This document shows positions 1,436 to 59,573 of a stretch of DNA of 64,000 nucleotides, piece by piece (within the stretch, counting starts at the first letter, position 1; the number at the start of each line of letters is the position of its first letter). The translations under genes and the position numbers were made by a program. Origin of the DNA: Candidatus Zixiibacteriota bacterium. Its GTDB lineage: Bacteria > Zixibacteria > MSB-5A5 > RBG-16-43-9. Below the pieces are notes generated by a model that worked only from the letters and a program-made list of their open reading frames with translations, was not told the origin of the DNA and ran no database searches. The stretch covers positions 22,612 to 86,611 of the forward strand of contig JAUYBY010000023.1 in the NCBI GenBank assembly GCA_030692925.1, in the 5' to 3' direction.

Positions 1436-1586
1436 GCCCCTACCTATGTCCAAATAAAAAAGGAGTACAAAAATAAATGGAGGTCTAAAGACCTCCGCTG
1501 CAAAAATAAAAACAAAATAGACCCGGGTTGTGGTTCTTCCTGAATGACAACCTGGGTCTATTAACTATTAAGCTCTTAAAAACTTC

Positions 1587-2354
1587 TTACACCTCTTCTT
1601 TCTCCAAAAAGAGGTTCCTCATCAGCTCGTCGATCTTCTCGATGCGGAAGGGCTTGGATAAATATCCGTCCGCGCCCTCGTTTAAGGCTTTGTCCTCCGG
1701 GTAGGCGTTGGAGTATCCGGTGATCATTATCACCGGAGTTTTAAGGTTCTTCTCCTTAATCCTCTTTATCAGGGTTATCCCATCCATATGGGGCATCTTG
1801 ATATCGGTGATGATCAGATCAAAAGGCTGCTCCTGCAAAATCTGCCAGGCTTTTTCACCATCCTCAGCCGCAAAAGGAAGATAATCCAGAGAGGAAAGGG
1901 TGTCGATGAGCATATTCCTCAGAATCTCGTCATCATCTATCACCAGGATCCTTTTAAGAGCAGACCTTTTTTCAGGCTCCGGTCTTTTGTGTCCCATAAG
2001 ATTCTGGATTGCCTCCTCGATCTTTCCAATGCGGAAGGGCTTTGCCAGAAAGCCGTCTGCTCCTTTCTGCAGCGCCTGTTCCATAGTGTAATTGAAATTG
2101 TAGCCGGTAATAAGCAGGACTGGCAGGGATGGGTTTTTTGCCTTAATCGATTCCAGAAGAGAAAAGCCGTTCATCCTGGGAAGCTTGATGTCAGCTATTA
2201 CCAGATCCATCTTCTGCTGGTCTAAAAGGGTCAAAGCCTCTTCTCCGTCCTTGGCTCCGAAGGTGTTGTAACCCAGGGCGGATAAAGTGTCGATCATCAG
2301 CTGACGAACCTTCTCCTCGTCATCCACGATCAAAACCTTCGTCCCTTGTTTCAT
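1587..2354 (-). CDS. Response regulator with two tandem receiver (REC) domains and no output domain
   Basis: Two repeats of LIVDD...D...MP..GF/DG...K....P..ITGY, the CheY-like receiver signature. Confidence 0.8.
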   Translation of the reverse strand: MKQGTKVLIVDDEEKVRQLMIDTLSALGYNTFGAKDGEEALTLLDQQKMDLVIADIKLPRMNGFSLLESIKAKNPSLPVLLITGYNFNYTMEQALQKGADGFLAKPFRIGKIEEAIQNLMGHKRPEPEKRSALKRILVIDDDEILRNMLIDTLSSLDYLPFAAEDGEKAWQILQEQPFDLIITDIKMPHMDGITLIKRIKEKNLKTPVIMITGYSNAYPEDKALNEGADGYLSKPFRIEKIDELMRNLFLEKEEV

Positions 2355-2448
2355 ATGGACCTCGAGTTTGTGGGTGTGAACTTAAGTCTCCATATCTTTT
2401 TATCGTATTTTTTTGAGATTACTTGAGGAGATACAGAAAAAAACTGAT

Positions 2449-2503
2449 TGTGGTTGCCCAATTTATTGGGCTTATTTTAAGCTCGATAAATCGAGCAACT
2501 ACA
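2449..2503. repeat. REP-like palindromic doublet (TGTGGTTG-CCCAATttATTGGG ... GCTCGATaaATCGAGC-AACTACA)
   Basis: Same unit family as at 15412-15466, 15653-15706, 25805-25945 and 26385-26520; conserved GTAG/CTAC ends. Confidence 0.7.
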
Positions 2504-2655
2504 GGCAGCCTCCAATTTCACGGGCTTCCAAAAAATGCAAAGGAAAAGTCGGGCAGGGTGCCTGACCTATGAAGAGTCATTATTTCACATCAGAGATACT
2601 ATTTGGAGCTATGGGGAACTGACACCTCGTCCTCACAGGAGTGAGGACGCTACAA

Positions 2656-4032
2656 TCATCTGGAACGGATAAGGTTCAAAACCTCAGATTTCTTTTGCTC
2701 TAATAACTCTTTTGTATTTGCCTCTAAGTTAAGTCTAAGCAGAGGCTCGGTGTTGGAGGGCCTTAGGTTGAACCACCAGTCAGGATATTCTATGGTTATA
2801 CCGTCCAGGTGGTCGATTTTAGCGTTCTTATACTGGGATTCGATTGCCTCGAGCTTCTTCGGGACATTTTCTACCCGGGAGTTTATCTCTCCAGTCCTGA
2901 AATAATGATCGATAGAACTTACCAGTTGAGAAAGCGGCTTATCCTCTTCGGAGAGAAGCTCTAAACAGACCGAAAGGGCGATCATTCCGGAATCAGCAAA
3001 ATAGTTTTTACGGAAATAGAAATGGCCAGAATGTTCGCCGCCGAAAGTTGCATTATATTTTTTCATCAGGGGTTTGATGAGTGCGTGTCCCACTGGCGTG
3101 CGGATGGGTATCCCTCCGTTTTGCTGAATGACCTCACGAACAGTCCTGGAACAGGGAACATTGTATAATATGGTTGCGCCTTTTTCCTTTTGAAGAAGCC
3201 TCTTAGCCACCAGGGCAGCAACCATATCTCCACCCAGGGTTACTCCCTTCTCGTCTACCAAAAACATCCGGTCCGCATCACCATCAAAAGCAACACCGAA
3301 ATCCGCTTTCTCCTCTAAAATCTTTTTCCTCAAAGGGACCATATTCTCCGGAATCATAGGATTGGGCACGTGGTTAGGGAAAGAGCCGTCCAGTTCAAAG
3401 AACATCGGAATCAGCTTGCAGGGAAGATGGGAGAAAAAATCAGGCAGGACCTTTCCGGCGATTCCGTTCCCGGCATCGGCTACTATTTTAAAGGGCTTGA
3501 TTTTCTGCGGTTCGATAAAAGATAAAAGGTGCTGTATGTAATCGGGCTGGATATCCTGATTTCTGACCTCACCTTTTTTCTCCGGGTTTGAAAAATCTCT
3601 TTTAAGTATGATTTCCTTGATCTGCTCAATCCCCTCTTTGCCACTTAAAGGGACAGCCTCCTCCTTGCACATCTTTATCCCGTTATATTCCGGCGGATTG
3701 TGCGAGGCGGTAATCATTGCTCCGAAATCGTATCCGAATCTGCCAACCGTAAAGTACAGAGCATCAGAAGTGCACAAGCCTATATCTATCGCATCTGCGC
3801 CTGCCTCGGTAATCCCGCGGGCAAGGCTTTTGAACAAGGCATTTGAGGAGAGCCGCATATCCCGACCTATGACCACCATTCTGGGATTAAGATATCGAAC
3901 AAACGCCTTGCCTATAAGGTAAGCCACATCGTTGTTCAGTTCATTAGGATATATACCCCTTATATCGTAAGCCTTAAAGATTGAGAGGTTTATTTTGAAG
4001 TTTTCTTTTTCCATTATCTGCTCCAGTTTCAA
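2656..4032 (-). CDS. Phosphomannomutase/phosphoglucomutase (AlgC/ManB-like, alpha-D-phosphohexomutase)
   Basis: FKAYDIRG N-terminus, TASHNPPEYNGIK active-site serine loop and four-domain length. Confidence 0.85.
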   Translation of the reverse strand: MKLEQIMEKENFKINLSIFKAYDIRGIYPNELNNDVAYLIGKAFVRYLNPRMVVIGRDMRLSSNALFKSLARGITEAGADAIDIGLCTSDALYFTVGRFGYDFGAMITASHNPPEYNGIKMCKEEAVPLSGKEGIEQIKEIILKRDFSNPEKKGEVRNQDIQPDYIQHLLSFIEPQKIKPFKIVADAGNGIAGKVLPDFFSHLPCKLIPMFFELDGSFPNHVPNPMIPENMVPLRKKILEEKADFGVAFDGDADRMFLVDEKGVTLGGDMVAALVAKRLLQKEKGATILYNVPCSRTVREVIQQNGGIPIRTPVGHALIKPLMKKYNATFGGEHSGHFYFRKNYFADSGMIALSVCLELLSEEDKPLSQLVSSIDHYFRTGEINSRVENVPKKLEAIESQYKNAKIDHLDGITIEYPDWWFNLRPSNTEPLLRLNLEANTKELLEQKKSEVLNLIRSR

Positions 4033-4207
4033 ACAACTATAAGGAAAAAAGTCGCCCTTGTCAAATCTTTCTTTTTAATAGTCTTTGGAGTGCATCCTTT
4101 GGCGGAATGCACTCCAAAAAGCCGTAGCGTTGCCAATCTTTTGGCAAGGTAAAGAGGTATCCATCCGGTCCGGAGACGAAAAAAAGTCTTTTCTCAAGAT
4201 TTTTTGC

Positions 4208-4254
4208 TTGACAAATCCTTGTTCTGCCGATAAAATATGTGAAAGTATTCACAA
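4208..4254 (+). promoter_or_regulatory. Sigma70-like promoter (TTGACA-17-TAAAAT) followed directly by a Rex operator (ATGTGAAAGTATTCACAA)
   Basis: TTGACA at 4208-4213, 17-nt spacer, TAAAAT at 4231-4236. An 18-bp inverted repeat TGTGAA-N6-TTCACA at 4237-4254 matches the Rex box consensus TTGTGAAnnnnTTCACAA. The rex ATG lies 5 nt downstream. Confidence 0.7.
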
Positions 4255-4258
4255 CGCT

Positions 4259-4897
4259 ATGCGAAAAATCTCGGAATCCACAATCCACAGGCTGTCGCTT
4301 TATTACCGCACTCTGGTTAGTCTACAGAGAGAAAGGTATATCACCGTTTCCTCCAGAGAGCTGGCTAAAAGGGATAAGCTCACCCCAGCCCAGGTGAGGA
4401 AAGACCTCTCCTTTTTCGGGAGCTTTGGCACAAGGGGATTAGGATACCCGGTGAACGAGCTTAAAGATAAGATCGCCTCTATTCTGGGATTGAACCGGAC
4501 CTGGAATGTGGCTCTGGTGGGGGTGGGAAACGTGGGTTCAGCTTTGGTCTCCTACAAGGAATTTCCCAGGCAGGGGTTTGTCATAAAGAAAATATTCGAC
4601 AACGACCAGAGGAAAATCGGAAAAAACCACAAGGGGATCCTGGTCTCAGACGTAAGGAATCTGGCTAAAGAACTGAAGGAGGACAGAATTGAGATCGTGG
4701 TCCTGGCTGTTCCGGCTTCTGCCGCCCAGAGCGTGGTGGATGAGGTAGTATCAGCCGGAGTTCATACTATTCTTAACTTCGCTCCGACCAACCTCAAGGT
4801 CCCGGACAACGTAGTTCTGCGCACGGTCAATATGGCAATGGAGTTAGAGCATCTCTCCTTTGCCCTTTCCAACCGGGGGAAAATAAAAGAGCTATAA
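4259..4897 (+). CDS. rex: Redox-sensing transcriptional repressor Rex
   Basis: N-terminal winged-helix region (TIHRLSLYYRTL...) and a CoA-binding/Rossmann domain (ALVGVGNVGSAL...). Start placed at the internal Met because ORF-track start 4085 overlaps the gene's own promoter and operator. Confidence 0.85.
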   Translation: MRKISESTIHRLSLYYRTLVSLQRERYITVSSRELAKRDKLTPAQVRKDLSFFGSFGTRGLGYPVNELKDKIASILGLNRTWNVALVGVGNVGSALVSYKEFPRQGFVIKKIFDNDQRKIGKNHKGILVSDVRNLAKELKEDRIEIVVLAVPASAAQSVVDEVVSAGVHTILNFAPTNLKVPDNVVLRTVNMAMELEHLSFALSNRGKIKEL

Positions 4898-7433: not shown

Positions 7434-9185
7434 ATGAGTAATTTAAGGTCCTTGTCAAAAATTACCTTAATCCTATTGTTGTTAGGGTCTGGATGTGCCG
7501 TTAATCATTCCCTCTCTAAAAAGGGATTGACCCGAGAACAGAAAACCACCTTAAACTATCTAAAAAAAGCTGGTGCAACTAAGGCTGAATTGGATACTCT
7601 ATCTATTCTTTTAAAAGCTGATACTTCTCCAGCAAAAATTCAGAAAAAAATTGATCTTATTATCCGAAGAAGCCTATCCCGGCTTTCTTTAGAACAAAAA
7701 GCAGTTTATTATTCTCTAAGAGAAGAGGAGCGTCTGGAATATCTGGCGGCTCCTGATAAAGAGAGATGGATAAAAAAAAGAGAAGATAGGTCAGTTAAAA
7801 AACTGTGCAGCACCAGGGAAGGAAAAACCCAGTATTATGCACTAAAAAACCTTCTTTCAAAAGAGGATCTGAAGGATTTTGTCAAAAAGGATTCTACTGA
7901 GAGGGTCGAGTGGCTCAAGAGCTTCTGGGCTAAAAGTGACCCTACTCCTACTACAGAAAGAAATGAATGGGAGGAGGAGTTTAACCGGAGAGTAAGGCAC
8001 GCTTTAGAAAATTTTCATTCTACTTTTGGACAAAAACCCTGGGATGATCGGGGCGATGTCTACATTAAACTGGGACCGCCGGATGAACGAAGATTATCAG
8101 TAGAAAATCCTTCGAAGTTTAGGATTGAGAGGATAGGAGATTCAGTCTATGATACCGAACGCGAGTATTATAAAACTGCAGGAGAGACCTGGTATTACGT
8201 AATAGAAGGAAAAGACGTTTACCTCCAATTTGAGGATCTCGTTGTCGGTTATTTAACCCTTGTCCCTTATAGGTCAGGAGACATTCGGGATCTTGATTAC
8301 ATGTCTAACTTTCTTGCTCAGAATGGCGAGCTGGGGTTAAGTAAAGCGGTATACCATCACGATTACGGTGGCGAGCCTTTAGATTTTGCCTGGGAGATTA
8401 TCAAATTCCGGAGTCTGAATAATGTTTATGAAGTCCTGGTCAATGTAGGAATACCGACTGGCAAGTTAGAAAAAGACTCATCGGGCCTGGTCCATTACAA
8501 CCAACAGATTGCTATTAGGGATGAAAAAGGCAAATTTATTTACTGTGATTCTGTCAGGGTCTGTCAAAGAGTGCCTGATTTTAAAAATCAACTTCTTATC
8601 GATCAGAGAGGATTTCTTTTAACCCCTGGGACATATAGCGTGGCTCTTGAGGTAAGAGATCCAGGAAGTAAAAGGATTGGCTTATATGAAGATGAACTTT
8701 TCTTGCCTGGTTATGTTTCCCCGGATTCATTGCATCAGCCAAACTTAGAGCTCAGCCGGGCTATTCTGGCATCGGAGGCAAAAGAAGCGCAACCAGATGA
8801 GGAGGAAAGTAAATTCTTTTTAAATGGATACCTGATTATTCCAAATCCAAGCCATATCTTTTTGGTGGAACAGGAGCCAAAAATTAAAGCCTATTTTGAA
8901 ATCTACAATCTTTTACCTAAAGATGATTCATTAAGGTTCGCAACCATTTCCCAGATAATAAAATATGTCAGTAAAGATTCAGCAGTGGTAAGTTCTGATA
9001 CAACAGTAACAATCCATCCAGGATTTGTTCCAGGAACTGTTGCCTATCAGATTATACCCTTAATAAATTCTCCCGGGCTTTATCTGGAACCAGGTGATTA
9101 CCTCTGGAGAATCGATGTAATTGACCTTAATCTTCCCAATAAGATTGAAAGCATAGTCAACAAATTGAAAATCGTGAAAGATTAA
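7434..9185 (+). CDS. GWxTD-domain lipoprotein
   Basis: Signal peptide with lipobox LLGSGC. The motif KPWDDRGDVYIKLGPPDE matches the GWxTD-domain signature (GWxTDRG..yI.yGpPD). Confidence 0.6.
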   Translation: MSNLRSLSKITLILLLLGSGCAVNHSLSKKGLTREQKTTLNYLKKAGATKAELDTLSILLKADTSPAKIQKKIDLIIRRSLSRLSLEQKAVYYSLREEERLEYLAAPDKERWIKKREDRSVKKLCSTREGKTQYYALKNLLSKEDLKDFVKKDSTERVEWLKSFWAKSDPTPTTERNEWEEEFNRRVRHALENFHSTFGQKPWDDRGDVYIKLGPPDERRLSVENPSKFRIERIGDSVYDTEREYYKTAGETWYYVIEGKDVYLQFEDLVVGYLTLVPYRSGDIRDLDYMSNFLAQNGELGLSKAVYHHDYGGEPLDFAWEIIKFRSLNNVYEVLVNVGIPTGKLEKDSSGLVHYNQQIAIRDEKGKFIYCDSVRVCQRVPDFKNQLLIDQRGFLLTPGTYSVALEVRDPGSKRIGLYEDELFLPGYVSPDSLHQPNLELSRAILASEAKEAQPDEEESKFFLNGYLIIPNPSHIFLVEQEPKIKAYFEIYNLLPKDDSLRFATISQIIKYVSKDSAVVSSDTTVTIHPGFVPGTVAYQIIPLINSPGLYLEPGDYLWRIDVIDLNLPNKIESIVNKLKIVKD

Positions 9186-9355
9186 ACAGGTGGATTTGAG
9201 GCATTTTCTAACTTTTGTCCAAATTCTACCGGATTTATCCAATAAAACAAAATGTTCATTTTTCTATATCTTGTATCCGAAACAGAATATTTTACAATAT
9301 ATTGAGGCAGGGGTCATATTTTTTAAAAAAATTTTAAGGGGTTTCAAGATTTTGC

Positions 9356-9383
9356 TTGACAAGAGATTATGCAGGGTTAGATT
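9356..9383 (+). promoter_or_regulatory. Putative promoter (TTGACA-16/17-TAGATT) for the small ORF below
   Basis: The box gATTTtGCTTGACAAG is also found at the 7369 promoter. A leader of about 185 nt would follow. Confidence 0.35.
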
Positions 9384-9574
9384 AATAGTTGAGGAGAGGG
9401 ATGTAATTAGCTGGGTAATTTAGTATTAGAATTACTCCTCACAAGCACTTGCTTTTTGAAAAGGGATATTTGAAGGTAAGATAAGTTTAGCAGATTAATT
9501 GATGTTTTGAAAAGGCGCAGGAATTTTTTTATCTGTGAATGTTCATTTTTTGAACATAAGGAGGAGGTGATTCT

Positions 9575-9655
9575 ATGGAGCTGAAAGAATTAATCCTGGA
9601 GGTGGAGGAGTTAGAGGAGAAGATTGCTCCTTTAGCATCTAACGACGGACAGTAG
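9575..9655 (+). CDS. Candidate small protein, 26 aa (MELKELILEVEELEEKIAPLASNDGQ)
   Basis: Strong SD AGGAGGAGGTGA 5 nt before ATG. A perfect inverted repeat ATGTTCA-N5-TGAACAT sits just upstream of the SD, and an intrinsic terminator lies downstream. Absent from the ORF track because it is under 60 aa. Confidence 0.3.
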   Translation: MELKELILEVEELEEKIAPLASNDGQ

Positions 9656-9706
9656 TAACCTGTTTTAGTTATTTCCTTAAAACGACAAGTAGCACCTCCT
9701 ATAGGA

Positions 9707-9740
9707 AGACCACCCTGCTCCTGGGTGGTCTTTTCTTTTT
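9707..9740 (+). terminator. Intrinsic terminator (AGACCACCC-tgctcct-GGGTGGTCT + T-run)
   Basis: 9-bp GC stem followed by TTTTCTTTTTCTTTC. Confidence 0.6.
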
Positions 9741-9744
9741 CTTT

Positions 9745-12700
9745 CTAGGCTGAACTCGTCATCTCCTGGGCAAGTTTTTTTATGTCGGTGAGGAGATCAA
9801 GCTTTTCTTTTTCGTCAAGGTAGCTTTGTTTTAACTCCGGGTCATCTATATTCTGGCTCAAGGCTTTTATGAGTTTGCCAGCCTTTTCATATTCCTTATA
9901 AGCATTTTCAAGGTCATTTTTCAAAAAGCTGAGTTTTCCTCTGAGGAAATAAATTCTCCAGATAATCTCAAGCCGGTTGAGCCTTAATGCCTTCTCTAAA
10001 GCCACCTCTGAATATTCTAAAGCCTGATTTAGATTCCCTTGTTTAAACTCCTTGCGGAGGAGCATATAATAATATTCGGACTCAATTAAAGGCATACTAT
10101 TCTGATCAATGATCTTTTTAGCATTTTCCAGATAGCTTTCAAGCATCCGGTTCTGGCTTGAATCCAAATAAGCCCAGGCAAGATCTAAACTTAAGCTGAG
10201 CTTATCCTCCAACGAGTTCAGCTTCTCAGCCAGGGCGATCGAATTTTCCAGCAGCTTCAAGGCTTCAGCGGTCTTTTTGTTTTTTCTTAAGAGTATTCCC
10301 TTTAAGCGACCAACTGCTATTTGGGTCCTTTTATCATCTATCGCCCTTGATATCTCCAGAGCTTCTTCCAAAAACCGATTCGCATCTTCTGAACGGTTCA
10401 ACAGAAAGAACAACCTTCCCAGAGAGAGCAGAACTGAAACTTTCAATTCTTTATCCTTTATTTCGTCGGAAATATCTAGAGCTTCTTTCAATTGAGTTAA
10501 TGCACCCTGATAGGAACCAGTTTCCAGGTCTATATTAGCCAGACTTTTTAATAAATAGCCGACCGGCTGCTGGAAGCCTATGTCCCGGGCTATTTCTAAT
10601 CCCCGTCTGGCATAATTTGTAGCTTTCTGGTAATCTCCTAATTTAAAGTAAGATTCGCTAAGATTTACCATATTTATAGATATTTCCTTTTTGTTTTCAG
10701 TCTCCTGGTTCAGCTTTAAAGATTCAAGGTAATATGGGATAGCCAGAGAATAAAATCCTGAGAAATACTCGACCAACCCCAGGTTGTTCAGAGACTGTGC
10801 GATCTTCTCCTTATTCTGTAGCTCTTTTCTTATCTCCAGAGATTCAGTATAATATCTTCTGGCTTCAGAATATTGATGCAAAGAAAGATAAATTGAACCG
10901 ATGTTATTCAAGGTGGAGGCTATATGATACTTATCACCCAGAGATTTTTGTATTTTCAATGCTTCCGCAAATACCTCTAATGCTTTTTGATATTGGGAAT
11001 CGATCCAATAGATATTGCCTAAATTATTCAGGGTGTGTGATACCTCTTTATTGTCCTTTAATTCCTGGAAAATCTTTTTGGCTCTTAATAGAGCATCCAA
11101 TCCTTTAGGGTAATCATGTTTTAACCTAAAAAGATCTCCCAAATCCTTATAGGTCTCAGCGATTAGTCTCTGGTTTTCTGAAAATTCAACTATCTTCAGG
11201 ATCTCCTCATAGTCTTTTTGAGCCTGGTTTAACTCTCCGATACTCTTCAAAAGATCGCCCCTTTGCATCAGAGCCTGAGCAATTTTTTCTGATTTCTCCC
11301 TTTCATCAGAGAGTTTTTCAGCGGCCGCCAAGGCTTTTTCAAGATATTTTAAAGCCTGAGGAAAGTCCAGATCCTTCTGATTTTTGATGGCACAGATAAG
11401 GGAGTAATCATAAGCTTTAAAGTAATCATCGCTGGAGATGAAATGAGAAGCGATCTCTTCGGTCTCGATTTCCTCTCCCCTGGATTTTCGTCCCTCCAGA
11501 AAATATGCCAGTTTACGATGGAGAGCTTCCTTGTCTCCTACGAAGTTCTTGTAGGTTAAAGACTGGAGCGTGGGGGTGGCGAAAGCATATGTCAGGGAGT
11601 TAAGTCTTTTCTGAGCCTGAATCAAAATTCGGTCTTTCAAAAGGATGAAGAGAGATTCGAATGTTTTGTCCTCTTCATATCCTGTCAGGAATTTTATAGA
11701 GTTCAGGTCAAACTCCATACCGATAACTGAAGTTAGATTGAGAAAATTCAAGATTTCCTCAGGATATTTTCTGAGATTCCCCAGGATCGTCTTTTCGATA
11801 GTGTCAGGGATATTGATCCCTTTTAGAAGCTGTTCTTCAAATCTAAAGAAGCTTTTTTCAACATACAGGGCTTTCTTTTCAAACAGATACTTCAAAATTT
11901 CCAAAGCAAAAAGTGGAACCCCGGAGGAATTCTGGTAAATGAAATCAAGCAAAGTATCAGGGACAGTTTTCTGTCCTAACTTCTGAGACAGGAGCTTACC
12001 CAGGTCCTGCATCGTAAGAGAGGGTAATCTCAGAAGGTGGAACTGGTTTGAACCAGTCAGGCAGTTGATCAAAGATTTAAGCTTACCCTTTGGGTCTAAA
12101 TTGGCTTCTTGTAGGGTTCCACATAAGAAGAGCTTAGATTTATCCAGGACTTTAGTCAGTTCCTCCAACAAAACCAGACTTCCTTCTCCCATATGGTGAA
12201 GGTCCTCAAAAGCTAAAACAAAAGGATAAAGATTAGAAGCCTCAAGTATGAAAGAAGAGAGTTTTTCCAGTTCTGAACTGGCCTGACTTTCTTTTTCATA
12301 ACCTTGGTTTAAGAAAGATTTAAAAATCTCTTCATATCTTTCGCCAAATGAGGGATGAAGCTTTTCAAAAAAGGGCCAGATTCGGCTGAAAAGCTCTCTT
12401 ACGGGCTGGAGAGGGTGGGTCTCATCCTTGAGGCAATCTATCTGAACAAAAAGAATCCCTTCAAGCTGGGCTTCCCTTTTTAGGTATTTAAGAAGAGTGG
12501 ATTTACCTATTCCCATCTCTCCCTCGATCAGAAATAACCTTCCTCCCCGGGTAAGTGATTCATCCAGCTCTTTTTTCAGTGCCTCATATTCTTTCTCCCG
12601 GTCGAGGATCTTACCACCGTAGATTCTGTTTAAATAGGAAGTCTTCTCAGACCCCCAGGCTGGAAAAGGAGTAATATCCGAAAGAGCCTCTTTTAGCTCT

Positions 12701-13473
12701 GATATATCCTGAAAGCGATCCTCAGGTTTTTTTTCAAGCAGTTTCAGAACCAGTGAGTCCAGACCCTGCGGCAATTCAGGTCTTAAGACAGACGGAGGAG
12801 GGGCGATTTTCTCCAGATGGTCAGACCTCAAAATCAAAGGATCCTCAGAGGAAAAAGGGACATTTGAGGTCAGAAGCTCAAACAAGATTATCCCCAGAGA
12901 ATAAAGATCTGTCTGCGGGTCGATTTTTTGACCGAGAAAAACCTCTGGAGCCATATATTCAAGTGTCCCTGCAGTGCTGGAAGAAGCTTGAGAGAAGGTT
13001 TTGCGTGCTAATCCGAAGTCCAGGAGTTTTACGGAGAAGATGTTACCGGTTAACTTGAAATTGGAGGGTTTAAGGTCAGCATGCACAAGATCCTGAGAGT
13101 GAAGGTACTCCAGTATGTCGCAGATCTGCCAAACGACCTGGTAAAACCTGTTTAAATCTGGCCGGGCAACTTCTGGAGTGAGCTCTTCTCCCTGCACCAT
13201 CTCCATAGTGTAGAAGGCGCTTTTGTCAAGAGTATACCCAAAATCATAGACCTCCACTATGCCGGGGTGAGACAGCTCTGAGGTCAGCCTGAATTCCTGC
13301 TTGAAATTCTCCAGGCTGTCTTCTTTCTGCTCTTCTTGGGCAGAATGGAGCTTCAGGGCAACAGTTTTTCCCTCCCACAAGTCTATAACCTCTAAGACCT
13401 TTCCCAAGCCACCCTGGCCAATTTCCTTTATGACTTGATAGCGTGGAGTAATGAACTCTTTTTCGGTTGACAT
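9745..13473 (-). CDS. Ser/Thr protein kinase - STAND/AAA NTPase - TPR-repeat protein (1242 aa)
   Basis: Kinase motifs HADLKPSNF, DFGLAR and APE; Walker A GEMGIGKST; about 500 aa of C-terminal TPR repeats. Confidence 0.85.
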   Translation of the reverse strand: MSTEKEFITPRYQVIKEIGQGGLGKVLEVIDLWEGKTVALKLHSAQEEQKEDSLENFKQEFRLTSELSHPGIVEVYDFGYTLDKSAFYTMEMVQGEELTPEVARPDLNRFYQVVWQICDILEYLHSQDLVHADLKPSNFKLTGNIFSVKLLDFGLARKTFSQASSSTAGTLEYMAPEVFLGQKIDPQTDLYSLGIILFELLTSNVPFSSEDPLILRSDHLEKIAPPPSVLRPELPQGLDSLVLKLLEKKPEDRFQDISELKEALSDITPFPAWGSEKTSYLNRIYGGKILDREKEYEALKKELDESLTRGGRLFLIEGEMGIGKSTLLKYLKREAQLEGILFVQIDCLKDETHPLQPVRELFSRIWPFFEKLHPSFGERYEEIFKSFLNQGYEKESQASSELEKLSSFILEASNLYPFVLAFEDLHHMGEGSLVLLEELTKVLDKSKLFLCGTLQEANLDPKGKLKSLINCLTGSNQFHLLRLPSLTMQDLGKLLSQKLGQKTVPDTLLDFIYQNSSGVPLFALEILKYLFEKKALYVEKSFFRFEEQLLKGINIPDTIEKTILGNLRKYPEEILNFLNLTSVIGMEFDLNSIKFLTGYEEDKTFESLFILLKDRILIQAQKRLNSLTYAFATPTLQSLTYKNFVGDKEALHRKLAYFLEGRKSRGEEIETEEIASHFISSDDYFKAYDYSLICAIKNQKDLDFPQALKYLEKALAAAEKLSDEREKSEKIAQALMQRGDLLKSIGELNQAQKDYEEILKIVEFSENQRLIAETYKDLGDLFRLKHDYPKGLDALLRAKKIFQELKDNKEVSHTLNNLGNIYWIDSQYQKALEVFAEALKIQKSLGDKYHIASTLNNIGSIYLSLHQYSEARRYYTESLEIRKELQNKEKIAQSLNNLGLVEYFSGFYSLAIPYYLESLKLNQETENKKEISINMVNLSESYFKLGDYQKATNYARRGLEIARDIGFQQPVGYLLKSLANIDLETGSYQGALTQLKEALDISDEIKDKELKVSVLLSLGRLFFLLNRSEDANRFLEEALEISRAIDDKRTQIAVGRLKGILLRKNKKTAEALKLLENSIALAEKLNSLEDKLSLSLDLAWAYLDSSQNRMLESYLENAKKIIDQNSMPLIESEYYYMLLRKEFKQGNLNQALEYSEVALEKALRLNRLEIIWRIYFLRGKLSFLKNDLENAYKEYEKAGKLIKALSQNIDDPELKQSYLDEKEKLDLLTDIKKLAQEMTSSA

Positions 13474-13552: not shown

Positions 13553-15265
13553 TTAAGAGGAGCTTAAAGGGAAGCTGAGCAGGAAGGAGGTACCTTTTCC
13601 TAACTCGCTTTCCACCTTTATTTCCCCTTTATGGTTTCTTATGATCTTCTGACAGGTCACCAGCCCCAGTCCATGACCCTCTTTCTTGGTGGTGAAATGC
13701 GGCTCAAAGATCTTACTTAAGTTTTCCGCAGGGATCCCTGTCCCGTTATCCTCTATTTTCACCCAGACTTTTTTCTCTTCAGGCCTGTATTCACTGGAGA
13801 TCCAAATCTCCCCTTTTCCGTCTGGCCTTTCCTTTATAGATTCAGCCGCATTGTTAAACAGGTTTAAAAAAACCTGCTGGATTTGACCTGCATCTAATTC
13901 CAGCATAGGTAACTCCGGGTCAAAGTTGGTGTTGAACTTTATCTGGGAGAACTTAGTCTGCGGTTTTAAGGAGAAGAGCAGGTCCTCGATCAGGTTTTTC
14001 AGGTCATATTTCTCCACTTTAGTCTCCAGCCTGGAGAAATCCATCAGCCCATCGGTGAAGCGTTTCATAGTGTTGACGCTTTCCAGGATAGCCCTGGCAT
14101 TGGAGGAGACTTTTTCAAGCTCACCTTTTTTCAAGTGTAAAGGTAAGAGCTCAGCGTTGTTCAGGATTATGGTAAGGTAGTTATTTAACTCATGCCCTAT
14201 GGAAGCTGACATCTCCCCGGCAGCCACCAGTTTCTCAGACTGGATAAGCCTTTTTTCCAGAAGCACCTTATCGGTGATGTCCTCCACTACCAGGATCAAG
14301 CCCATTATTCTGTTCTCCACGTTTTCCAAAGGGCTTACCTTTACAGATAAGACTAATTCTTCATCTTTAAACTTATGAAAAGATTTTGCCTCCTCATAAG
14401 GCTGGCCAGTATATAGCACCTGATAGCAGATCTTTTTCCACTTGTTCTTCTCCTCCTCTGGAACCAAGTCTAAAATGGAGATCTGGTTGAAGGAAAGATC
14501 TGAAAGATCCTCTCTCCAGCCGGCTTTCTTGAAAATCTCCCTGGAAGCCTGGTTGGCTATGGTGATCCAGAGGTTGTTGTCCACCACCAGCAGCCCAATC
14601 GGGGTGCGGCTGACCACGTTTTCGTTGTATATTTTCAGGGCTAAAAGGTTCTCGTATAATTTGGCATTCTCAATGGCAATGGCAGCCTGTCCGGCAAAAA
14701 GCTCAAAAACATAAAGGTCGCTCTGCAAAAATACGTTGTTTTTAGAGGAGTTGTCCAGATACAAAATCCCGATGATCTTCTCCTTACTTTTCAGGGGAAC
14801 GCACATTATCGATTTTAACTTGAGTTCCAGGATGCTTTTTTGTTTGGAGAACCTCTCATCTTTTAAGGCATCGCTGGTATAGATCGATTCGCCAGTTGTT
14901 GCCACCTTATTGGCAATCGACATACTTATCCTGAAGTCCTCTTTGCTCAAAGATTCGTTGGTTATATTATGCGCGGTCTTGAACTGCAGCTCTCCTTTAT
15001 CATCTAAGAGCATCAGGAAACCTCTTTCCGCCCTTAAAAGAGAGACTGCCTTTTTCATCACGGTCTGCAGGATGTCATCCAGCACCAGAGAGGAGTTAAT
15101 CGCCTGACTGACCTCTAAGAGGGCTTCTAAATCGTCATTTTTAAATTTTCCAGTAGTGTTATTTTGTAAACGGGGGTGTGCGGTCTGGACTTTCTGAAAG
15201 AGGCTTTCCATTTCCTCCAAGGCAGTTTTGTCCTTTTTGTTAACCCCTGAATTGTTCATTCCCAT
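13553..15265 (-). CDS. Sensor histidine kinase with GAF and PAS domains
   Basis: GAF region, PAS region, HisKA H-box (SIGHELNNYL) and HATPase_c N/G boxes (NLFNNAAESI, GTGIPAE, GHGLGL). Confidence 0.85.
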   Translation of the reverse strand: MGMNNSGVNKKDKTALEEMESLFQKVQTAHPRLQNNTTGKFKNDDLEALLEVSQAINSSLVLDDILQTVMKKAVSLLRAERGFLMLLDDKGELQFKTAHNITNESLSKEDFRISMSIANKVATTGESIYTSDALKDERFSKQKSILELKLKSIMCVPLKSKEKIIGILYLDNSSKNNVFLQSDLYVFELFAGQAAIAIENAKLYENLLALKIYNENVVSRTPIGLLVVDNNLWITIANQASREIFKKAGWREDLSDLSFNQISILDLVPEEEKNKWKKICYQVLYTGQPYEEAKSFHKFKDEELVLSVKVSPLENVENRIMGLILVVEDITDKVLLEKRLIQSEKLVAAGEMSASIGHELNNYLTIILNNAELLPLHLKKGELEKVSSNARAILESVNTMKRFTDGLMDFSRLETKVEKYDLKNLIEDLLFSLKPQTKFSQIKFNTNFDPELPMLELDAGQIQQVFLNLFNNAAESIKERPDGKGEIWISSEYRPEEKKVWVKIEDNGTGIPAENLSKIFEPHFTTKKEGHGLGLVTCQKIIRNHKGEIKVESELGKGTSFLLSFPLSSS

Positions 15266-16422: not shown

Positions 16423-18639
16423 TTATAAAACCTTCAATATCACAATCGTGAAATCATCATACAAAGAGATGCCGTGCGCGAAGTTCTCGACTTCCCCGAC
16501 GATAAGCTCCTTCAGCTCTTCGCAGGAAAGTTTCCTGTTTTCCAAAAGCAGCTCCAAGAGCCGGTCTTCTCCGAACATCTCCTGTTTCTCATTGAAGTTC
16601 TCGGTTAGCCCATCCGAATAAAAGAAGACCAGGTCCTCAGATTCAAAAAGAATTTCCTCCATCTGGTAGGTTGCCTCAGGAAAGGGTCCCAGGATAAGCC
16701 CTCCTGTTTTGAGAAATTCCACCTTTTGGTCTTTGCGAATGACTATGGGATAGTTGTGCCCGGCATTGCAATAGGAAAGTTTTCGGGTATGAGGATTGAA
16801 CTCGCCGTAAAACATCGTTGCGAACCTGCCGTCGGAGACCGAAGAGGAGATGAGCTGATTTATGTTGGAAATAGTTTCAGAAGGCTCGAATTTATTTTTC
16901 ATCATCGCCCTTAAGGAGGCGTGTAAAAGCGATACCATCAAGGCGGCAGGGACACCTTTGCCCGAGGCATCAGCTATGGCAACCCCTAAGGAACCATCAG
17001 ACCTCTCTAAAAAGTCATAATAATCCCCTCCGACCTGATGGGCAGGCTGGGTATAAGCGGAAAGCTCAAAAGCTTTTCCTTTAGGAAAAGCCTTAGGCAA
17101 AAGCCCGAGCTGGATTTGCTTTGCTACCAGAAGCTCCTCCTCTATCTTTTGTTTTTCTAAAGACTCCTGATAGAGCTGGGCATTTTTATAGGCGACAACG
17201 AACTGGTTAGCCAGAACCTTTAAAAGGGTCAAATCCTCATAGGTATATTTTAGACCGGTGATTTTTTTGGTCAGACCGAAAAACCCGATGAACTCCTCAG
17301 AGCTATAAATTGGAACTATGAGAAAAACATCTGAGTCAGACAGGGTTTTAAAAAGGGGAGTATCTTTTTCAAAGCTCAGCTCATCTAAAAAAAATGGCCG
17401 GTCCTTTAATCTAAGCTCCTGGATCAAATGGTCATCTTCCGGGAAGGAAAGGTTTTTATCTTCTGAAAAAAGAGAAAATCTTCCATTTTTTGCATCGCAC
17501 AGGCAGAGGTAAACCTCCTCCACTAACATCTCCTTTTTCAAGGCCTCAAAGATTGTGCGGTTAAGCTCATCCAGATTCAGGATGGAGATTATCTTACGGC
17601 TGAACATCTCCATCATTATGCGGTAATCAGCTTTGTCCTTTAATAATAACCTTTTCACTAACTCATCTATCCATCCCATAATTGGCTGGAAAAGGAATAT
17701 GGCCAATATGAGGTAACCTATCTCTAAGATTGGCACCCTGCGGCCTAAAAGGGTCTGCATCAGATTACTCAACTGAGTAATCAAAAGAAAATAGATACCC
17801 AGAAGAAGGGCAGAGGTCAGGGAATAGACCAGACTCTGTCTTACCAGGGTCCTGATATCCAGAAAGCGATAGCGGATGATTGACCAGGCAATTGAGCCGC
17901 TCCCTATCAGAAGGGCTCCTATGGTTAAAGCATACCTCAGGCTGTCCGGAATCTTCAAGCTGGTCAAGGCAGGCAAGATAAAGGCGACCGCATAAAGTCC
18001 AGCAGCAGATCTAATACCCCAGGTAACCAGTTGAGCCTGAGTTTTCAAGCGGCTCTGAGTCAGTTTTCTGGTTCCCTGGTAAAGGAAGAGAACCGCCAGG
18101 AAAAGATAGGTTAAGTTTATGATCGAAAAAAACTGTAGATGAAACCTGTAGATTACCTCCACCGAAAGAGAAAGGAATTTGAGAACGAAAGTTACCGGTT
18201 GGAGAATAAAACCTCCCAGTCCGGATACATTTTCCAGGGAGGAGAGATTGATGAGATTGCGTGGCTGGTACAGAAATAAAACCAGGAGGAGGCGAAAGAT
18301 ATGAGGCGTGAAAATCAGTATCTTGGCCCGTAGGTGTTTTTTCAAAAAAAGATTTTCCACTGGAAAAACCAGGGAGAAAAGCAGAAGCTGGGGGAAGAAA
18401 AGCTCCCACAAGAAAAAGATATTGGTGTAGAAAACTGAAGTGGTAGATGCCAGCCCGCCAGCTTTAAGAATGGTTCCGAAGGCGGCAAAGATAGGGCCTG
18501 AGCCGGCAAAGAAAAGCATCAGGCTGGTTATCCGGTTTAGCCTGCCCCGGTAATCCTCGGAGAGGATAGTAATCCCTAAAAAGAAAAGGACTATGCCGCA
18601 GACCAGATAGACTGAAGCTACTAAAGTAAGAAGACCCAC
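16423..18639 (-). CDS. Membrane-anchored PP2C (SpoIIE/RsbU-type) phosphatase with GAF-like linker
   Basis: About 8 N-terminal TM helices and a C-terminal PPM domain (HQVGGDYYDF..., GVAIADASGKG..., FYSDGLTE). Confidence 0.8.
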   Translation of the reverse strand: MGLLTLVASVYLVCGIVLFFLGITILSEDYRGRLNRITSLMLFFAGSGPIFAAFGTILKAGGLASTTSVFYTNIFFLWELFFPQLLLFSLVFPVENLFLKKHLRAKILIFTPHIFRLLLVLFLYQPRNLINLSSLENVSGLGGFILQPVTFVLKFLSLSVEVIYRFHLQFFSIINLTYLFLAVLFLYQGTRKLTQSRLKTQAQLVTWGIRSAAGLYAVAFILPALTSLKIPDSLRYALTIGALLIGSGSIAWSIIRYRFLDIRTLVRQSLVYSLTSALLLGIYFLLITQLSNLMQTLLGRRVPILEIGYLILAIFLFQPIMGWIDELVKRLLLKDKADYRIMMEMFSRKIISILNLDELNRTIFEALKKEMLVEEVYLCLCDAKNGRFSLFSEDKNLSFPEDDHLIQELRLKDRPFFLDELSFEKDTPLFKTLSDSDVFLIVPIYSSEEFIGFFGLTKKITGLKYTYEDLTLLKVLANQFVVAYKNAQLYQESLEKQKIEEELLVAKQIQLGLLPKAFPKGKAFELSAYTQPAHQVGGDYYDFLERSDGSLGVAIADASGKGVPAALMVSLLHASLRAMMKNKFEPSETISNINQLISSSVSDGRFATMFYGEFNPHTRKLSYCNAGHNYPIVIRKDQKVEFLKTGGLILGPFPEATYQMEEILFESEDLVFFYSDGLTENFNEKQEMFGEDRLLELLLENRKLSCEELKELIVGEVENFAHGISLYDDFTIVILKVL

Positions 18640-18647
18640 TTTATATC

Positions 18648-19082: not shown

Positions 19083-19159
19083 TTTCTTAAATAAAAAAAG
19101 GTAGGTTGATCGACCTACCTTTAGATCTGCATTAAGTTCTTTCCAAAATAAAAGAGAGT

Positions 19160-31886: not shown

Positions 31887-34202
31887 ATGGCTGGGGAATA
31901 CCCAAGTTTCAGAAAAGATTTAATCATAAGCCAGCAGGAATATGAGGGGAAGACCTACTACGTTATCAAAGACCCGATTACCAGGAAATTCTTCCGAGTA
32001 AAAGAGCCGGAATATTTTATCACCCAAAATTTGGATGGGACAAAATCTAATCAAGAAATAATCCAGGAATTTGAAAGAAAGTTCCAGGTCAAGCTGGACC
32101 TGACGACTCTGGAGAGTTTCCTCAACCGGTTGGAGAAATTAGGTTTTTTAGAAGGTGAAATCTCACAGAGGGAGCTTTCCAAATTACAGTATGAAGCTGA
32201 AAAGAAAAAAAGTCTGCTCAAGAAAATCCTCTTCATAAAAATAAAAGCTTTTGACCCGGATAAATTCTTAGATAGGCTACTGAAAAAATTCAGGTTTGTC
32301 TATACAAAGGGTTTTTTGCTTTTCTCCTTGGCCGTAATTTTTCTGGCTCTTGTCGTCACCATCTCAAACTGGGAGGATGCTGGATACAGCTTCAAGAAAC
32401 TGTTTGCTTTGACCACTATTGTCAAGCTCTGGCTGGCTATTTTTTTAATTGCCTTGGTGCACGAGTTGGGGCATGCTTTAACCTGCAAATATTTTGGAGG
32501 TGAAGTGCGCGAGATGGGGTTTTTGCTCATTTATTTTCAGCCTGCTTTTTTCACCAACGTCTCAGATGCCTGGATGTTCAAGGAGAAAAGGAAAAAACTA
32601 TTAGTCTCCTGGGCAGGGATATATATCCATCTTTTCCTTTGGGCTTGCGTCACACTTTTGTGGAGGATTACCGATTTAGAGACTCAGCTTAACTCCTTTC
32701 TCTTTGTGGTTATGGTAGCTTCCGGGGTTTTAATCCTCTTCAATTTCAACCCCCTGATAAAATTGGATGGATATTACCTGTTATCCGACTGGCTGGAAAT
32801 ACCGAATTTGCGAAAGAAAGCTTTTGGCTATTTAGGCTCTATTGTCAAGAACAAAATTCTCAGGGTCAGGGAGAAAATCCCTGAAGTCACTGCCCGGGAT
32901 AAAAAGATTTTTCCCTTGTACGGCACCCTGTCCATATTTTATTCTTTTGTCCTCATCCTTTATTTTTTCCTGAAGGTGGGTAATTTTCTGATATCCCGGT
33001 ATCAGGGTTTCGGATTTGCCTTGTTTTTGGTAATCCTTTATTTTATCTTTCAACAGCCGTTAAAAATTCTTTTGGCTGGCGGTTTTCATTTTTTCTTAAT
33101 CAAAAAAGAAGGACTTATGAAGCCGAAGAAGATCTTCATCTATGGCGGAGTAATCATCTTAATCCTGATTTTATTATTTATTGTCAAACTGGATTTGAAG
33201 ATCAGCCAGGAGTGCGAATTCGCCGCCATGGAGAGGTATTCCATTGTTAACAGTCCCTCTGCGGGGTTCATTGAGGAACAGCTTTATCAAGAGGATAAAG
33301 AAGAGAAAAGGCAGATGAATGTCTTGAGACTGATCTCCTCCACCTACGGGATAGCGAATTTGGAACCAATGGTAAAGGAGGGGCAAAGGGTTAAAAAGGG
33401 ACAGGTTATAGTTCGCGTGTTTTCCAATCAATATATCAATGAACTGGAGGAGAACGAGGCAGCCATAAGAAAGGAAAAGGCTAATCTGGAACTTCTGGAA
33501 AAAGGAGCCAGGCCTGAGGAGATAGCCCAGGCTAAAGAACAGGTGAGAAAAGCAGAAGCTAAACTTGAGTCAAACGAGAATGAACTTAAGAGGCTTAAAG
33601 AGCTTTTTTCCCGGAACCTGATCTCCAAGGAGGAGCTGGAGAAAAAGGAATCCGAACATACGGTCCTGGCCGCAGAGCTGGGGATTGCCCAGAACAATCT
33701 GAAGATACTTCTGAGAGGTGCAAAAAAAGAAGAGATCGACATGTCTAGGGCTGAGATCAGCCGGCTGGAGGCTAAAGCGAAATTCTATAAAGATCAAATC
33801 GCTAGTTCGGATTTCAAATCACCCATCTCCGGGATCGTCACCTCGGTGCAGCCGGAAGGGAATCTCTTGAGCATCGCCAATTACGATACCATAAGGGTCT
33901 TGATGCCGGTATCAGAAAAAGATCTGGACGTCATAAAATCAGGCCAGAAGGTCAAAGCTAAGGTAAGAAGCTTTTCCTGGAAAACTTTCTACGGGGTGGT
34001 AACCAGGATCGCCTATCAGGCAGAACAACATAAATCCCGCCAGGTTTTCCTGGTCACCAGCAGAATAGATAACTCCGAGCTACTTTTGAAACCCGGTATG
34101 ACCGGGCAGGCAAAAATCTACTGCGGAAAAAGAAGCATCGCCTACCTTCTTCTGCGCCGGATAATTAGCTGGATCAGGGTAGAGGTCTGGTCCTGGTTTT
34201 GA
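31887..34202 (+). CDS. Tripartite protein: PqqD-like RiPP recognition element (RRE) + peptidase M50 (site-2-protease-like, HELGH) + HlyD-family periplasmic adaptor
   Basis: aa 20-95 match PqqD (FITQNLDGTKSNQEIIQEF...LESFLNRLEKLGFL versus PqqD [18 protein letters not shown]...VVEFL). TM helices carry HELGH. The C-terminal 340 aa contain a coiled coil, a lipoyl-like region (GQVIVRV, SPISGIV) and a beta-barrel (KPGMTGQAKI). Confidence 0.7.
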   Translation: MAGEYPSFRKDLIISQQEYEGKTYYVIKDPITRKFFRVKEPEYFITQNLDGTKSNQEIIQEFERKFQVKLDLTTLESFLNRLEKLGFLEGEISQRELSKLQYEAEKKKSLLKKILFIKIKAFDPDKFLDRLLKKFRFVYTKGFLLFSLAVIFLALVVTISNWEDAGYSFKKLFALTTIVKLWLAIFLIALVHELGHALTCKYFGGEVREMGFLLIYFQPAFFTNVSDAWMFKEKRKKLLVSWAGIYIHLFLWACVTLLWRITDLETQLNSFLFVVMVASGVLILFNFNPLIKLDGYYLLSDWLEIPNLRKKAFGYLGSIVKNKILRVREKIPEVTARDKKIFPLYGTLSIFYSFVLILYFFLKVGNFLISRYQGFGFALFLVILYFIFQQPLKILLAGGFHFFLIKKEGLMKPKKIFIYGGVIILILILLFIVKLDLKISQECEFAAMERYSIVNSPSAGFIEEQLYQEDKEEKRQMNVLRLISSTYGIANLEPMVKEGQRVKKGQVIVRVFSNQYINELEENEAAIRKEKANLELLEKGARPEEIAQAKEQVRKAEAKLESNENELKRLKELFSRNLISKEELEKKESEHTVLAAELGIAQNNLKILLRGAKKEEIDMSRAEISRLEAKAKFYKDQIASSDFKSPISGIVTSVQPEGNLLSIANYDTIRVLMPVSEKDLDVIKSGQKVKAKVRSFSWKTFYGVVTRIAYQAEQHKSRQVFLVTSRIDNSELLLKPGMTGQAKIYCGKRSIAYLLLRRIISWIRVEVWSWF

Positions 34203-35845: not shown

Positions 35846-35873
35846 GAAGAATCTTTAAGGAGGTATTTTTGAG

Positions 35874-36908: not shown

Positions 36909-36913
36909 AAGAA

Positions 36914-57721: not shown

Positions 57722-57741
57722 GAAACTTTTACTCCTAATTA

Positions 57742-59486: not shown

Positions 59487-59573
59487 AGGTTATCCTTTTG
59501 ATTGCTTTTTCTTCAGACCTGAAAGGAGTATCACGGATTCTACTCGGGAGATTAAAAATAACATTCAAAAAAC

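Follow-up and report, generated by a model that had tools for sequence, protein, structure and literature searches.

A conserved 26-codon gene of Zixibacteria-like bacteria, with a daptide-type leader motif and a variable tail, as a candidate peptide precursor

The stretch of DNA analysed here, 64,000 nucleotides of contig JAUYBY010000023.1 from a Candidatus Zixiibacteriota bacterium (hereafter the window), carries between the gene of a GWxTD-domain protein and a convergent gene for a Ser/Thr kinase a small open reading frame (ORF) of 26 codons, which together with its signals is called the micro-gene below (Table 1). A first-pass annotation of this DNA had described a promoter, a leader, an inverted repeat, a Shine-Dalgarno (SD) sequence, the ORF and a terminator, and all of them are present where they had been placed. 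The ORF is a genuine, strongly conserved stand-alone gene of Zixibacteria-like bacteria, and strong purifying selection acts on it. Genes of precursors as short as this one, which has 81 nt with its stop codon, usually escape annotation; the micro-gene proves to be among the most conserved genes in its neighbourhood. Zixibacteria are a poorly known, uncultured phylum without genetics.

Table 1. Positions of the micro-gene, its elements and other features in the window
Feature	Position	Strand	Remarks
GWxTD-domain protein	7434..9185	+	N-terminal LLLLGSGC signal-like sequence; TIGR04514, 58 bits
Sigma-70-type promoter	9356..9383	+	TTGACA 9356-9361, 16-nt spacer, TAGATT 9378-9383; predicted transcription start ~9390
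Long 5' untranslated leader	9390..9558	+	~185 nt from start site to ATG; AU-rich
Inverted repeat ATGTTCAtttttTGAACAT	9539..9557	+	the 'operator' of the first-pass annotation
Extended SD aGGAGGAGGTGAT	9559..9571	+	AGGAGGTG from 9562, within aaGGAGGAGGTGATtct
Micro-ORF	ATG 9575 to TAG 9655	+	26 codons, TAA directly after; product MELKELILEVEELEEKIAPLASNDGQ
Codons 1-19, MELKELILEVEELEEKIAP	9575..9631	+	conserved acidic amphipathic 'leader', ending ELEEKIAP
Codons 20-26, LASNDGQ, and stop	9632..9655	+	variable 'core' or tail
CACCTCCT box	9693..9700	+	conserved element directly 5' of the terminator
Rho-independent terminator	9704..9744	+	stem-loop 9704-9734, 12 pairs, then a T-rich tail
Convergent Ser/Thr kinase-AAA(STAND)-TPR protein	9745..13473	-	1242 aa; Pfam Pkinase, AAA_16, TPR_12/TPR_10
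PqqD-like domain-site-2 metalloprotease (HELGH)-HlyD-type adaptor fusion	31887..34202	+	771 aa; proposed processing/export partner
tmRNA/AbiEii region	59571-59956	-
	58605-59486	-
	57702-58628	+

The transcription unit

The promoter-like site upstream of the micro-ORF has the top score (10/12) of positions 9000 to 10000. Counted in this single sequence, promoter-like sites are unremarkable (5 seen against 2.4 +/- 1.5 in shuffles), so that it is conservation that decides whether the elements exceed chance. At each of the 12 distinct homologous loci that were read, promoter, SD, ORF and terminator follow one another in this order. TTGACA is kept 159-223 nt 5' of the ATG in 12/12 of them, mostly in the form CTTGACAA, with an xAxATT-type -10 element after it in the homologous loci checked. 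The SD is AGGAGG(T/C)G in all homologues (AGGAGGG in L109), and a terminator stands at the matching position in every one, with stem sequences that vary among clades. Within the window GGAGG precedes 9 of 48 larger ORFs and SD-like sequences are found at fewer than half of them, which makes the SD of the micro-gene exceptional for its genome. The earlier description of a micro-gene that stands alone, with a promoter of its own, a long leader, a strong SD and a terminator, is thus borne out at 12/12 loci, and so is the remark that these signals are too well formed for noise, as promoter, SD, ORF and terminator recur across the homologues. An autonomous transcription unit of ~350 nt is the best explanation of the locus.

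The long 5' leader is likewise present in every homologue, with a sequence that is conserved within the close clade only. An Rfam search and a folding of aligned leaders, both proposed earlier as checks on this region, gave little: Rfam 15 has no match to the leader and only chance-level hits to the terminator region (E >= 0.12), the whole window at gathering thresholds returns the transfer-messenger RNA (tmRNA) only, and RNAalifold on four close leaders yields a weak consensus of -10.7 kcal/mol, in which 4 of 35 pairs are compensatory. A structured or riboswitch-like leader is not supported by these results.

The inverted repeat ATGTTCAtttttTGAACAT had been taken for a perfect palindromic operator. 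It is unique in the window, where 0.02 chance matches would be expected even if three mismatches are allowed, but it is not conserved beyond the closest relatives: the palindrome is perfect in the window and, with 6-bp arms, in L092 only; L002 and L097 show it with a single mismatch, and it is absent at L103, L095, L102, L105, L109, L110, L111 and L114. Rather than a conserved operator, the repeat probably forms a small hairpin ahead of the SD that is specific to the clade. A direct repeat, AATGTTCATTTTT, links its left arm (9538-9550) to a site just after the GWxTD stop codon (9251-9263); it was set aside as probably due to chance (expected count 0.37; two or more copies in 5 of 100 shuffles).

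A family under protein-level selection

Homologous micro-ORFs occur at 15 further loci, and the family comprises 31 distinct peptides overall; the micro-ORF was located in L002, L092, L095, L097, L100, L102, L103, L105, L106, L109, L110, L111-113 and L114/115. A scan of species-representative genomes for the GWxTD protein led to L002, where that protein is 80% identical and the micro-ORF reads MELKKLILEVEELEEKIAPLASASGQ. A metagenome scan with a degenerate DNA pattern for [DE]L[DE][DE]K[IV]APLA gave five further loci (L092, L095, L097, L100 and L102), whereas 8 of its 13 matches were unrelated proteins with DLDEKIAPLA-like strings. A padded 40-mer query returned six 26-residue gene calls and one of 30 residues from the Joint Genome Institute (JGI), whose gene callers report 26-residue members; P0001 is found on 26 contigs. 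Finally, 29 cluster representatives were recovered at E<=1e-3 by a profile search with the 30-residue P0007 as first row, which was exhaustive over 1.84 billion representatives. Two kinds of candidates were discarded: matches of a looser pattern to viral contigs fell by chance inside large proteins or in unrelated short frames, and the Latescibacterota matches (VEEEAINEFIAPLQSASG) of a tblastn search with the peptide against 80 GWxTD loci are chance hits inside proteins of 620-725 residues. No mention of the peptide strings EEKIAPL, EKIAPLA or LEEKIAP, nor of GWxTD, was found in the literature searched. A protein identical to the product of another window gene is annotated as stemming from a metagenome-assembled genome of candidate division Zixibacteria. 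Deposited close relatives of the region, however, carry three different taxonomic labels (uncultured Ignavibacteria, Terriglobales and candidate division Zixibacteria), which suggests inconsistent binning or classification of the lineage.

When codons 2-21 of the window are compared with L095 or L102, the proportion of synonymous differences is saturated (pS 0.85-1.0), while that of nonsynonymous differences remains near 0.09 (pN), a pN/pS of ~0.1. The first 21 residues of the L102 peptide are identical to those of the window at 19/21 positions, and the flanking proteins at this locus have diverged to 32% (GWxTD) and 35-38% (kinase) identity. Saturated synonymous sites, low pN and diverged neighbours together show purifying selection at the level of the protein and not conservation of the RNA only. 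The conservation of the peptide in relatives, on which the first-pass annotation had made its claim depend, extends to loci at which both neighbours differ (L097/L100); that the micro-gene is kept there with neither of its window neighbours underlines its autonomy.

These observations bear on the proposal that the ORF serves as a leader peptide for translational attenuation, or that the unit is an attenuator controlling read-through into a downstream gene. A short ORF with a strong SD and then a terminator would suit such a role. However, the strong terminator is followed by a convergent gene at six loci (window, L002, L092, L102, L103 and L110), which leaves no co-oriented gene to regulate, and no conserved alternative antiterminator structure is present. 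In attenuation leaders only a few regulatory codons matter; here strong purifying selection covers 19 residues. Synteny effectively refutes a role as attenuator, and we give either version next to no credence.

Between the stop codon and the terminator lies an element that the first-pass annotation had overlooked, the CACCTCCT box, whose sequence complements the SD AGGAGGTG and is that of the anti-SD at the 3' end of 16S rRNA. An exact CACCTCC is found in this place in 11 of the 12 loci read, with CATCTCC in L110, at a distance of 10-43 nt from the stop codon (seven loci measured). The terminator stems diverge between clades, and the box remains unchanged. Predicted folds of the RNA from SD to terminator pair the box with the SD in most homologues; in folds of the full-length RNA it competes with a GGAGGUG inside codons 9-10. 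Read on the minus strand, the box contains an SD with no usable ORF. In the transcript, the 3' CACCUCCU box probably pairs with the SD of its own mRNA and thereby limits translation or stabilises the message.

Alternatively, the RNA might be the main effector, a regulatory or dual-function small RNA (sRNA) of ~350 nt whose CACCUCCU box pairs with the SDs of other mRNAs, with the ORF secondary. Seeds just 5' of the terminator are carried by sRNAs derived from 3' ends, and the box of the micro-gene always has this position. It is also invariant across clades with saturated synonymous sites, the long 5' leader is conserved in length, and folding z-scores reach -2.8 to -3.3. On the other hand, protein-level selection on the ORF is unambiguous and allows the RNA an additional role at most; the box has a perfect cis partner in its own SD, with which it is paired in most predicted folds; and the locus has no Rfam family, no conserved fold in its leader and no identified targets. 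We therefore regard an RNA-centred function as quite improbable.

Leader, tail and a candidate protease

Aligned on the AP motif, the 31 members fall into two parts. Positions -12 to -1 (L-E-V-E-E-L-E-E-K-I-A-P) have column entropies of 0-0.95 bits, those from +1 onward of 1.6-2.7 bits, and the rise directly after AP is abrupt. Four residues do not vary at all, namely L(-7), E(-6), A(-2) and P(-1), and E(-8) is conserved in 90% of the members. In terms of the window peptide, residues 8-19 are almost invariant, in a neighbourhood where flanking proteins are just 32-38% identical. What follows is a core of 7-17 residues, rich in Gly, Ser and Ala. Two other interpretations of this architecture were tried and dropped. 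A tag like Pup or UBact was suggested by the many tails that end in GGQ, but other members end differently. For a double-glycine leader the hydrophobic and acidic residues are off the consensus positions relative to GG, and cleavage would leave a single residue.

The boundary coincides with a position known from daptides. The leader of a daptide precursor carries the motif ELExMEAP directly before the core, its removal is attributed to the intramembrane peptidase MpaP, which depends on a recognition element (RRE) for RiPPs, peptides that ribosomes make and that are modified after translation (PMC10036551), and the cleavage site of daptide products lies after 'ELExxxxx' (PMC12670281). ELE and the next five residues of the window peptide reach exactly to Pro19, where conservation stops: residues 12-19, ELEEKIAP, conform to ELExxxAP directly before the core, at the position given by the cleavage rule. 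The precursor TfDapA1 (...LELEMQELEAMEAP/GFW) and LILEVEELEEKIAP share 57% identity over 14 columns (hhalign P=0.008).

A relative of the protease that acts on daptides is encoded in the window as well (Table 1). The best NCBIfam hit of the protein is the daptide protease model NF041824 (daptide_HExxH; model positions 18-363 of 379), which its residues 25-386 match with 215.5 bits (E=1.3e-63; cutoff 300), and models of HlyD-type adaptors hit its C-terminal half. The sequence contains the motifs HELGH and NPLIKLDG, and the top Pfam match of residues 25-88 is PqqD, with 17.6 bits in the window, 33.3 in L114 and 27.7 in L116 (cutoff 23.4). The two matches, the two motifs and the PqqD-like N-terminus together identify a fusion of an RRE, a site-2 protease (S2P) and a HlyD-like adaptor. 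In two lineages, L111-113 (53% identical to the window protein) and L114/115 (49%), with 56% identity between them, the gene of an orthologue of this RRE-S2P-HlyD fusion immediately precedes the micro-ORF and shares its strand. In both, the micro-ORF begins ~300 nt downstream of the protease gene and keeps its own promoter, SD, CACCTCC box and terminator. Here and below, adjacencies observed on near-identical contigs were counted once each.

The reading that we favour, with somewhat better than even confidence, is that the micro-gene encodes a RiPP-style precursor made of a 19-residue daptide-type leader and a short variable core that is exported. The PqqD-like RRE of the fusion would bind the leader MELKELILEVEELEEKIAP, the intramembrane HExxH protease of the same protein would cut after Pro19, and the HlyD-like part would help the 7-residue peptide LASNDGQ to leave the cell. 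The core (residues 20-26) would then be a short, fast-evolving product. Since no tailoring enzyme was found in the window, this product is possibly unmodified, or modified by enzymes that are encoded elsewhere. The 'leader peptide' of the first-pass annotation would accordingly stand in the RiPP sense, with 19 residues of ELExxxAP leader and 7 of core, and falls as a translational attenuation leader.

Several observations weigh against a processed and exported precursor. The protease gene of the window lies 22 kb from the micro-gene, the two are not adjacent in L002, L092, L097, L095, L102 and L103 either, and the orthologue in L116 has no micro-ORF beside it. The NF041824 score marks the protease as a relative, not an equivalog, of the daptide protease, and the peptide alone stays below every curated family threshold (17.4 bits). 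Neither an ABC transporter nor another inner-membrane exporter was identified beside the micro-gene or the protease gene. None of the expected tailoring enzymes (LanB/PEARL, YcaO, radical-SAM or DapBCD-type) was found in the window, the scan of which covered almost all ORFs of 100 aa or more that lie outside larger genes. We know of no precedent among daptide-like systems for a Gly/Ser/Ala-rich product of 7 residues. The alignment used for the entropies was anchored on 'IAP', which inflates conservation at -3 to -1, and a conserved N-terminal helix with a floppy tail would equally fit an intracellular micro-protein.

The likeness to daptides (MpaA/DapA with MpaP) thus consists in an acidic helical leader that ends in ELExxxAP just before the core, in a candidate partner with an N-terminal PqqD-like RRE fused to a HExxH membrane protease, and in the adjacency of precursor and protease genes in two lineages. 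The differences are considerable. In contrast to daptides, none of the 31 members has the invariant C-terminal Thr (they end in Q, H, G, R, P, S, A, I, L, V, F or M), and their cores are not the hydrophobic ones of 20-30 residues. The daptide precursor model NF041808 does not match the window peptide at E<=1, and the tandem-repeat relative P0022 reaches only 13.6 bits (cutoff 25). Enzymes of the DapB/C/D/M set did not turn up either: the scan of the window detected no DapB/DapC oxidative decarboxylase, aminotransferase or N-methyltransferase and generic methyltransferases only, of which the one at 37828-38277 scores 57.6 bits to daptide_MTase (cutoff 175). Furthermore, the precursor gene here is single, has its own promoter and terminator and is often far from the protease gene; the protease is fused to HlyD; and the host is a member of the Zixibacteria, not of the Actinomycetota or Bacillota.

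The leader also resembles the scaffold peptides of the pearlins. The published scaffold ends are ...DEVESKIAPLALAW for AmmA and ...EEIEDKVAPLALAW for BhaA (PMC9850906), and VEELEEKIAPLA of the micro-gene family resembles both; the shared pattern is E-phi-E-x-K-(I/V)-A-P-L-A, with EEKIAPLA here, ESKIAPLA in AmmA and EDKVAPLA in BhaA. All of these peptides are highly acidic and helical, and as the scaffold helix is predicted to bind a TPR domain, so a TPR protein is a recurrent neighbour here. The micro-gene might accordingly encode a scaffold, or carrier, that is extended or modified at its C-terminus by a LanB-like peptide-aminoacyl-tRNA ligase (PEARL) encoded elsewhere, as in AmmA and BhaA. 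NF033737 (Amm_Lyn_leader) is the only curated family that matches (cutoff 30 bits): the window peptide reaches 17.4 bits (E=0.0035), its relative P0012 22.4 and the two-repeat P0026 30.9, so that the window peptide itself remains under the cutoff. An hhalign comparison of the family with AmmA gives P=3.7e-5 (probability 71%). However, the minimal recognition tag of PEARL is LEEIEDKVAPLALA (supplement, PMC11962472), and PEARL and BhaC1 require a C-terminal PLAL(A)(W) (PMC11962472, PMC9850906). In place of an ...APLAL(A)(W) end the window peptide continues as APLASNDGQ, the tails of the family comprise 7-17 variable residues, and many members lack LA after AP. Nor was a match to Lant_dehydr or PEARL found in the window, or among the scanned large ORFs or precomputed annotations of L095, L102, L103, L111, L114 and L116. 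A pearlin-type scaffold is on this evidence very improbable.

Since the characters that define daptides (the C-terminal Thr, the Dap enzymes) and those that define pearlins are both wanting, the favoured precursor would work like both systems and be a member of neither. Here an ELExxxAP leader occurs without the enzymes defining the daptide or the pearlin class. This leader, which was earlier tied to daptides, is common to the AmmA and BhaA scaffolds, and its combination with an RRE-bearing site-2 protease suggests an older and more general peptide-release module, onto which different chemistries, or none, may have been grafted.

Comparable, too, is the epipeptide system YydF/YydH of Bacillus subtilis, which likewise combines a small peptide precursor with a membrane protease of the M50 type with HExxH. 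The window protease matches the YydH/LiaK model with 52.8 bits, far under its cutoff of 225, and JGI names the orthologues 'putative peptide zinc metalloprotease' (a KEGG name). In contrast to YydF/YydH, neither a radical-SAM epimerase nor an ABC transporter operon is present here, and the leader motif differs.

Divergent from the RRE-S2P-HlyD gene stands the gene of a SAM-dependent methyltransferase in the window (30764-31495, minus strand) and in L116 (8891-9628, minus strand), with 56% identity between the loci. It could be a tailoring enzyme of the peptide, or the pairing could be coincidental. The protease region is followed by a polyamine cluster (35273-37831, plus strand) with a pyruvoyl-dependent arginine decarboxylase, a deoxyhypusine-synthase-like (homospermidine-type) enzyme and an agmatinase.

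Relatives of another build are tandem-repeat proteins of 74-119 residues (P0017, P0018, P0022, P0026, P0030, P0032, P0033, L107:586-945 and L108:658-1014). They consist of 2-3 units of '[LI]E[IV]EELE[EA]K[IV]APG...NHNET[LF]V', in which the leader motif is repeated and each copy has its NHNET segment, a string for which no literature match was found. These proteins may be a family of multi-core precursors. In L107 and L108 the repeat-type gene is directly followed by that of a TPR_10/12-type protein.

The convergent kinase and other neighbours

Two gene associations recur in the family. Besides the protease, it is the kinase with its TPR repeats, an orthologue of which converges on the micro-ORF at the six loci named above, which come from no fewer than four diverged sub-clades; identity between the kinases of L102 and the window is just 35-38%. 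It is absent beside the micro-ORF in L097/L100, L095, L111 and L114. The association is real, and the kinase gene is probably tied functionally to the peptide, as its sensor or regulator. A precedent comes from the pearlin system, in which BhaA is predicted to bind with its acidic helix in the TPR cleft of BhaC1 (PMC9850906).

The suggestion that the product is a small regulatory protein was retained as a rival on account of this neighbour. The peptide would remain unprocessed within the cell, where its acidic amphipathic helix, with hydrophobic residues at 3, 6, 10, 13, 17 and 20, would dock in the TPR domain of the kinase as a regulator, ligand or phospho-substrate, and the tail would be a disordered appendage. 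That the kinase is the most frequent neighbour across such diverged loci and carries TPR_12/TPR_10 repeats fits this well, as do the scaffold helix predicted in the cleft of BhaC1 and the TPR proteins after the repeat-type relatives. Moreover, nearly all members retain a Ser at a distance of 2-5 residues from AP on the C-terminal side, commonly at core positions 2-4. Yet convergent genes are not co-transcribed, the kinase is missing at several loci, and neither the match to ELExxxAP, nor the sharp boundary after AP, nor the two independent adjacencies to an RRE-S2P gene would be explained. We consider a role as an unprocessed intracellular peptide unlikely, although it deserves to be taken seriously; both this role and an RNA-centred one could coexist with the precursor model.

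The precursor reading and the kinase might also be parts of a single peptide-signalling circuit of Zixibacteria that has so far been undescribed. In such a circuit the free-standing micro-gene would supply a daptide-like leader with a hypervariable core of 7-17 residues, the RRE-S2P-HlyD protein would release and export this core, the TPR domain of the STAND kinase would read the precursor or the mature peptide, core and receptor would co-diversify as in Rap-Phr, and an SD/anti-SD clamp would gate production. As in the Rap-Phr/RRNPP systems of Firmicutes, a tiny gene adjoins that of a large TPR signalling protein, and variable C-terminal residues could carry specificity. In contrast to these systems, the peptide has no Sec signal peptide, the genes are convergent, and the adjoining gene encodes a STAND Ser/Thr kinase instead of a phosphatase or transcription factor; that a peptide would be re-imported and sensed is entirely conjectural here. 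The circuit as a whole is doubtful. The recurrent pairing with a TPR-bearing STAND kinase and the conserved SD/anti-SD arrangement provide testable hypotheses on peptide signalling and translational control.

The GWxTD gene is a less constant companion. An association of the peptide with a preceding GWxTD gene, which had been proposed as a check, holds for three contexts, the window, L002 and L102 (where the protein is 32% identical), and fails for L092, L097, L095, L111 and L114. The informative links are those to the TPR kinase and the RRE-S2P-HlyD protease, not that to GWxTD.

By the kinase lies a partner-switching module (16423-19498, minus strand) that comprises a STAS protein (19160-19498), an RsbW-like HATPase_c_2 kinase (18648-19082) and a SpoIIE/PP2C phosphatase of 738 residues (16423-18639). 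After the module come a NUDIX gene and the gene of a GAF-PAS histidine kinase (13553-15265). With these genes nearby, the micro-gene borders a dense signalling island.

In L095, a radical-SAM/SPASM peptide maturase (Clo7bot/CefB-like) and an MsbA-like ABC exporter (1176-4659) are encoded 2.6-6 kb upstream of the micro-ORF, and a secreted Cys-rich protein of 83 residues (8083-8334) downstream of it. A link of the maturase and exporter to the micro-peptide was rejected as coincidental, as the arrangement is seen in L095 only and the micro-peptide has no Cys; the three genes are likely a separate RiPP system.

Elsewhere in the window, a weak match to an IS200-like Y1 transposase (PF01797, E=7.5e-07, with no single matched stretch over threshold) lies inside a polysaccharide-biosynthesis region (25953-26366, minus strand). 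The tmRNA gene, the tag of which is ANEYSYALAA, adjoins the gene of an AbiEii-type nucleotidyltransferase toxin and an unassigned ORF of 308 residues; the arrangement may represent a type IV toxin-antitoxin pair, or an island that has integrated at the tmRNA gene.

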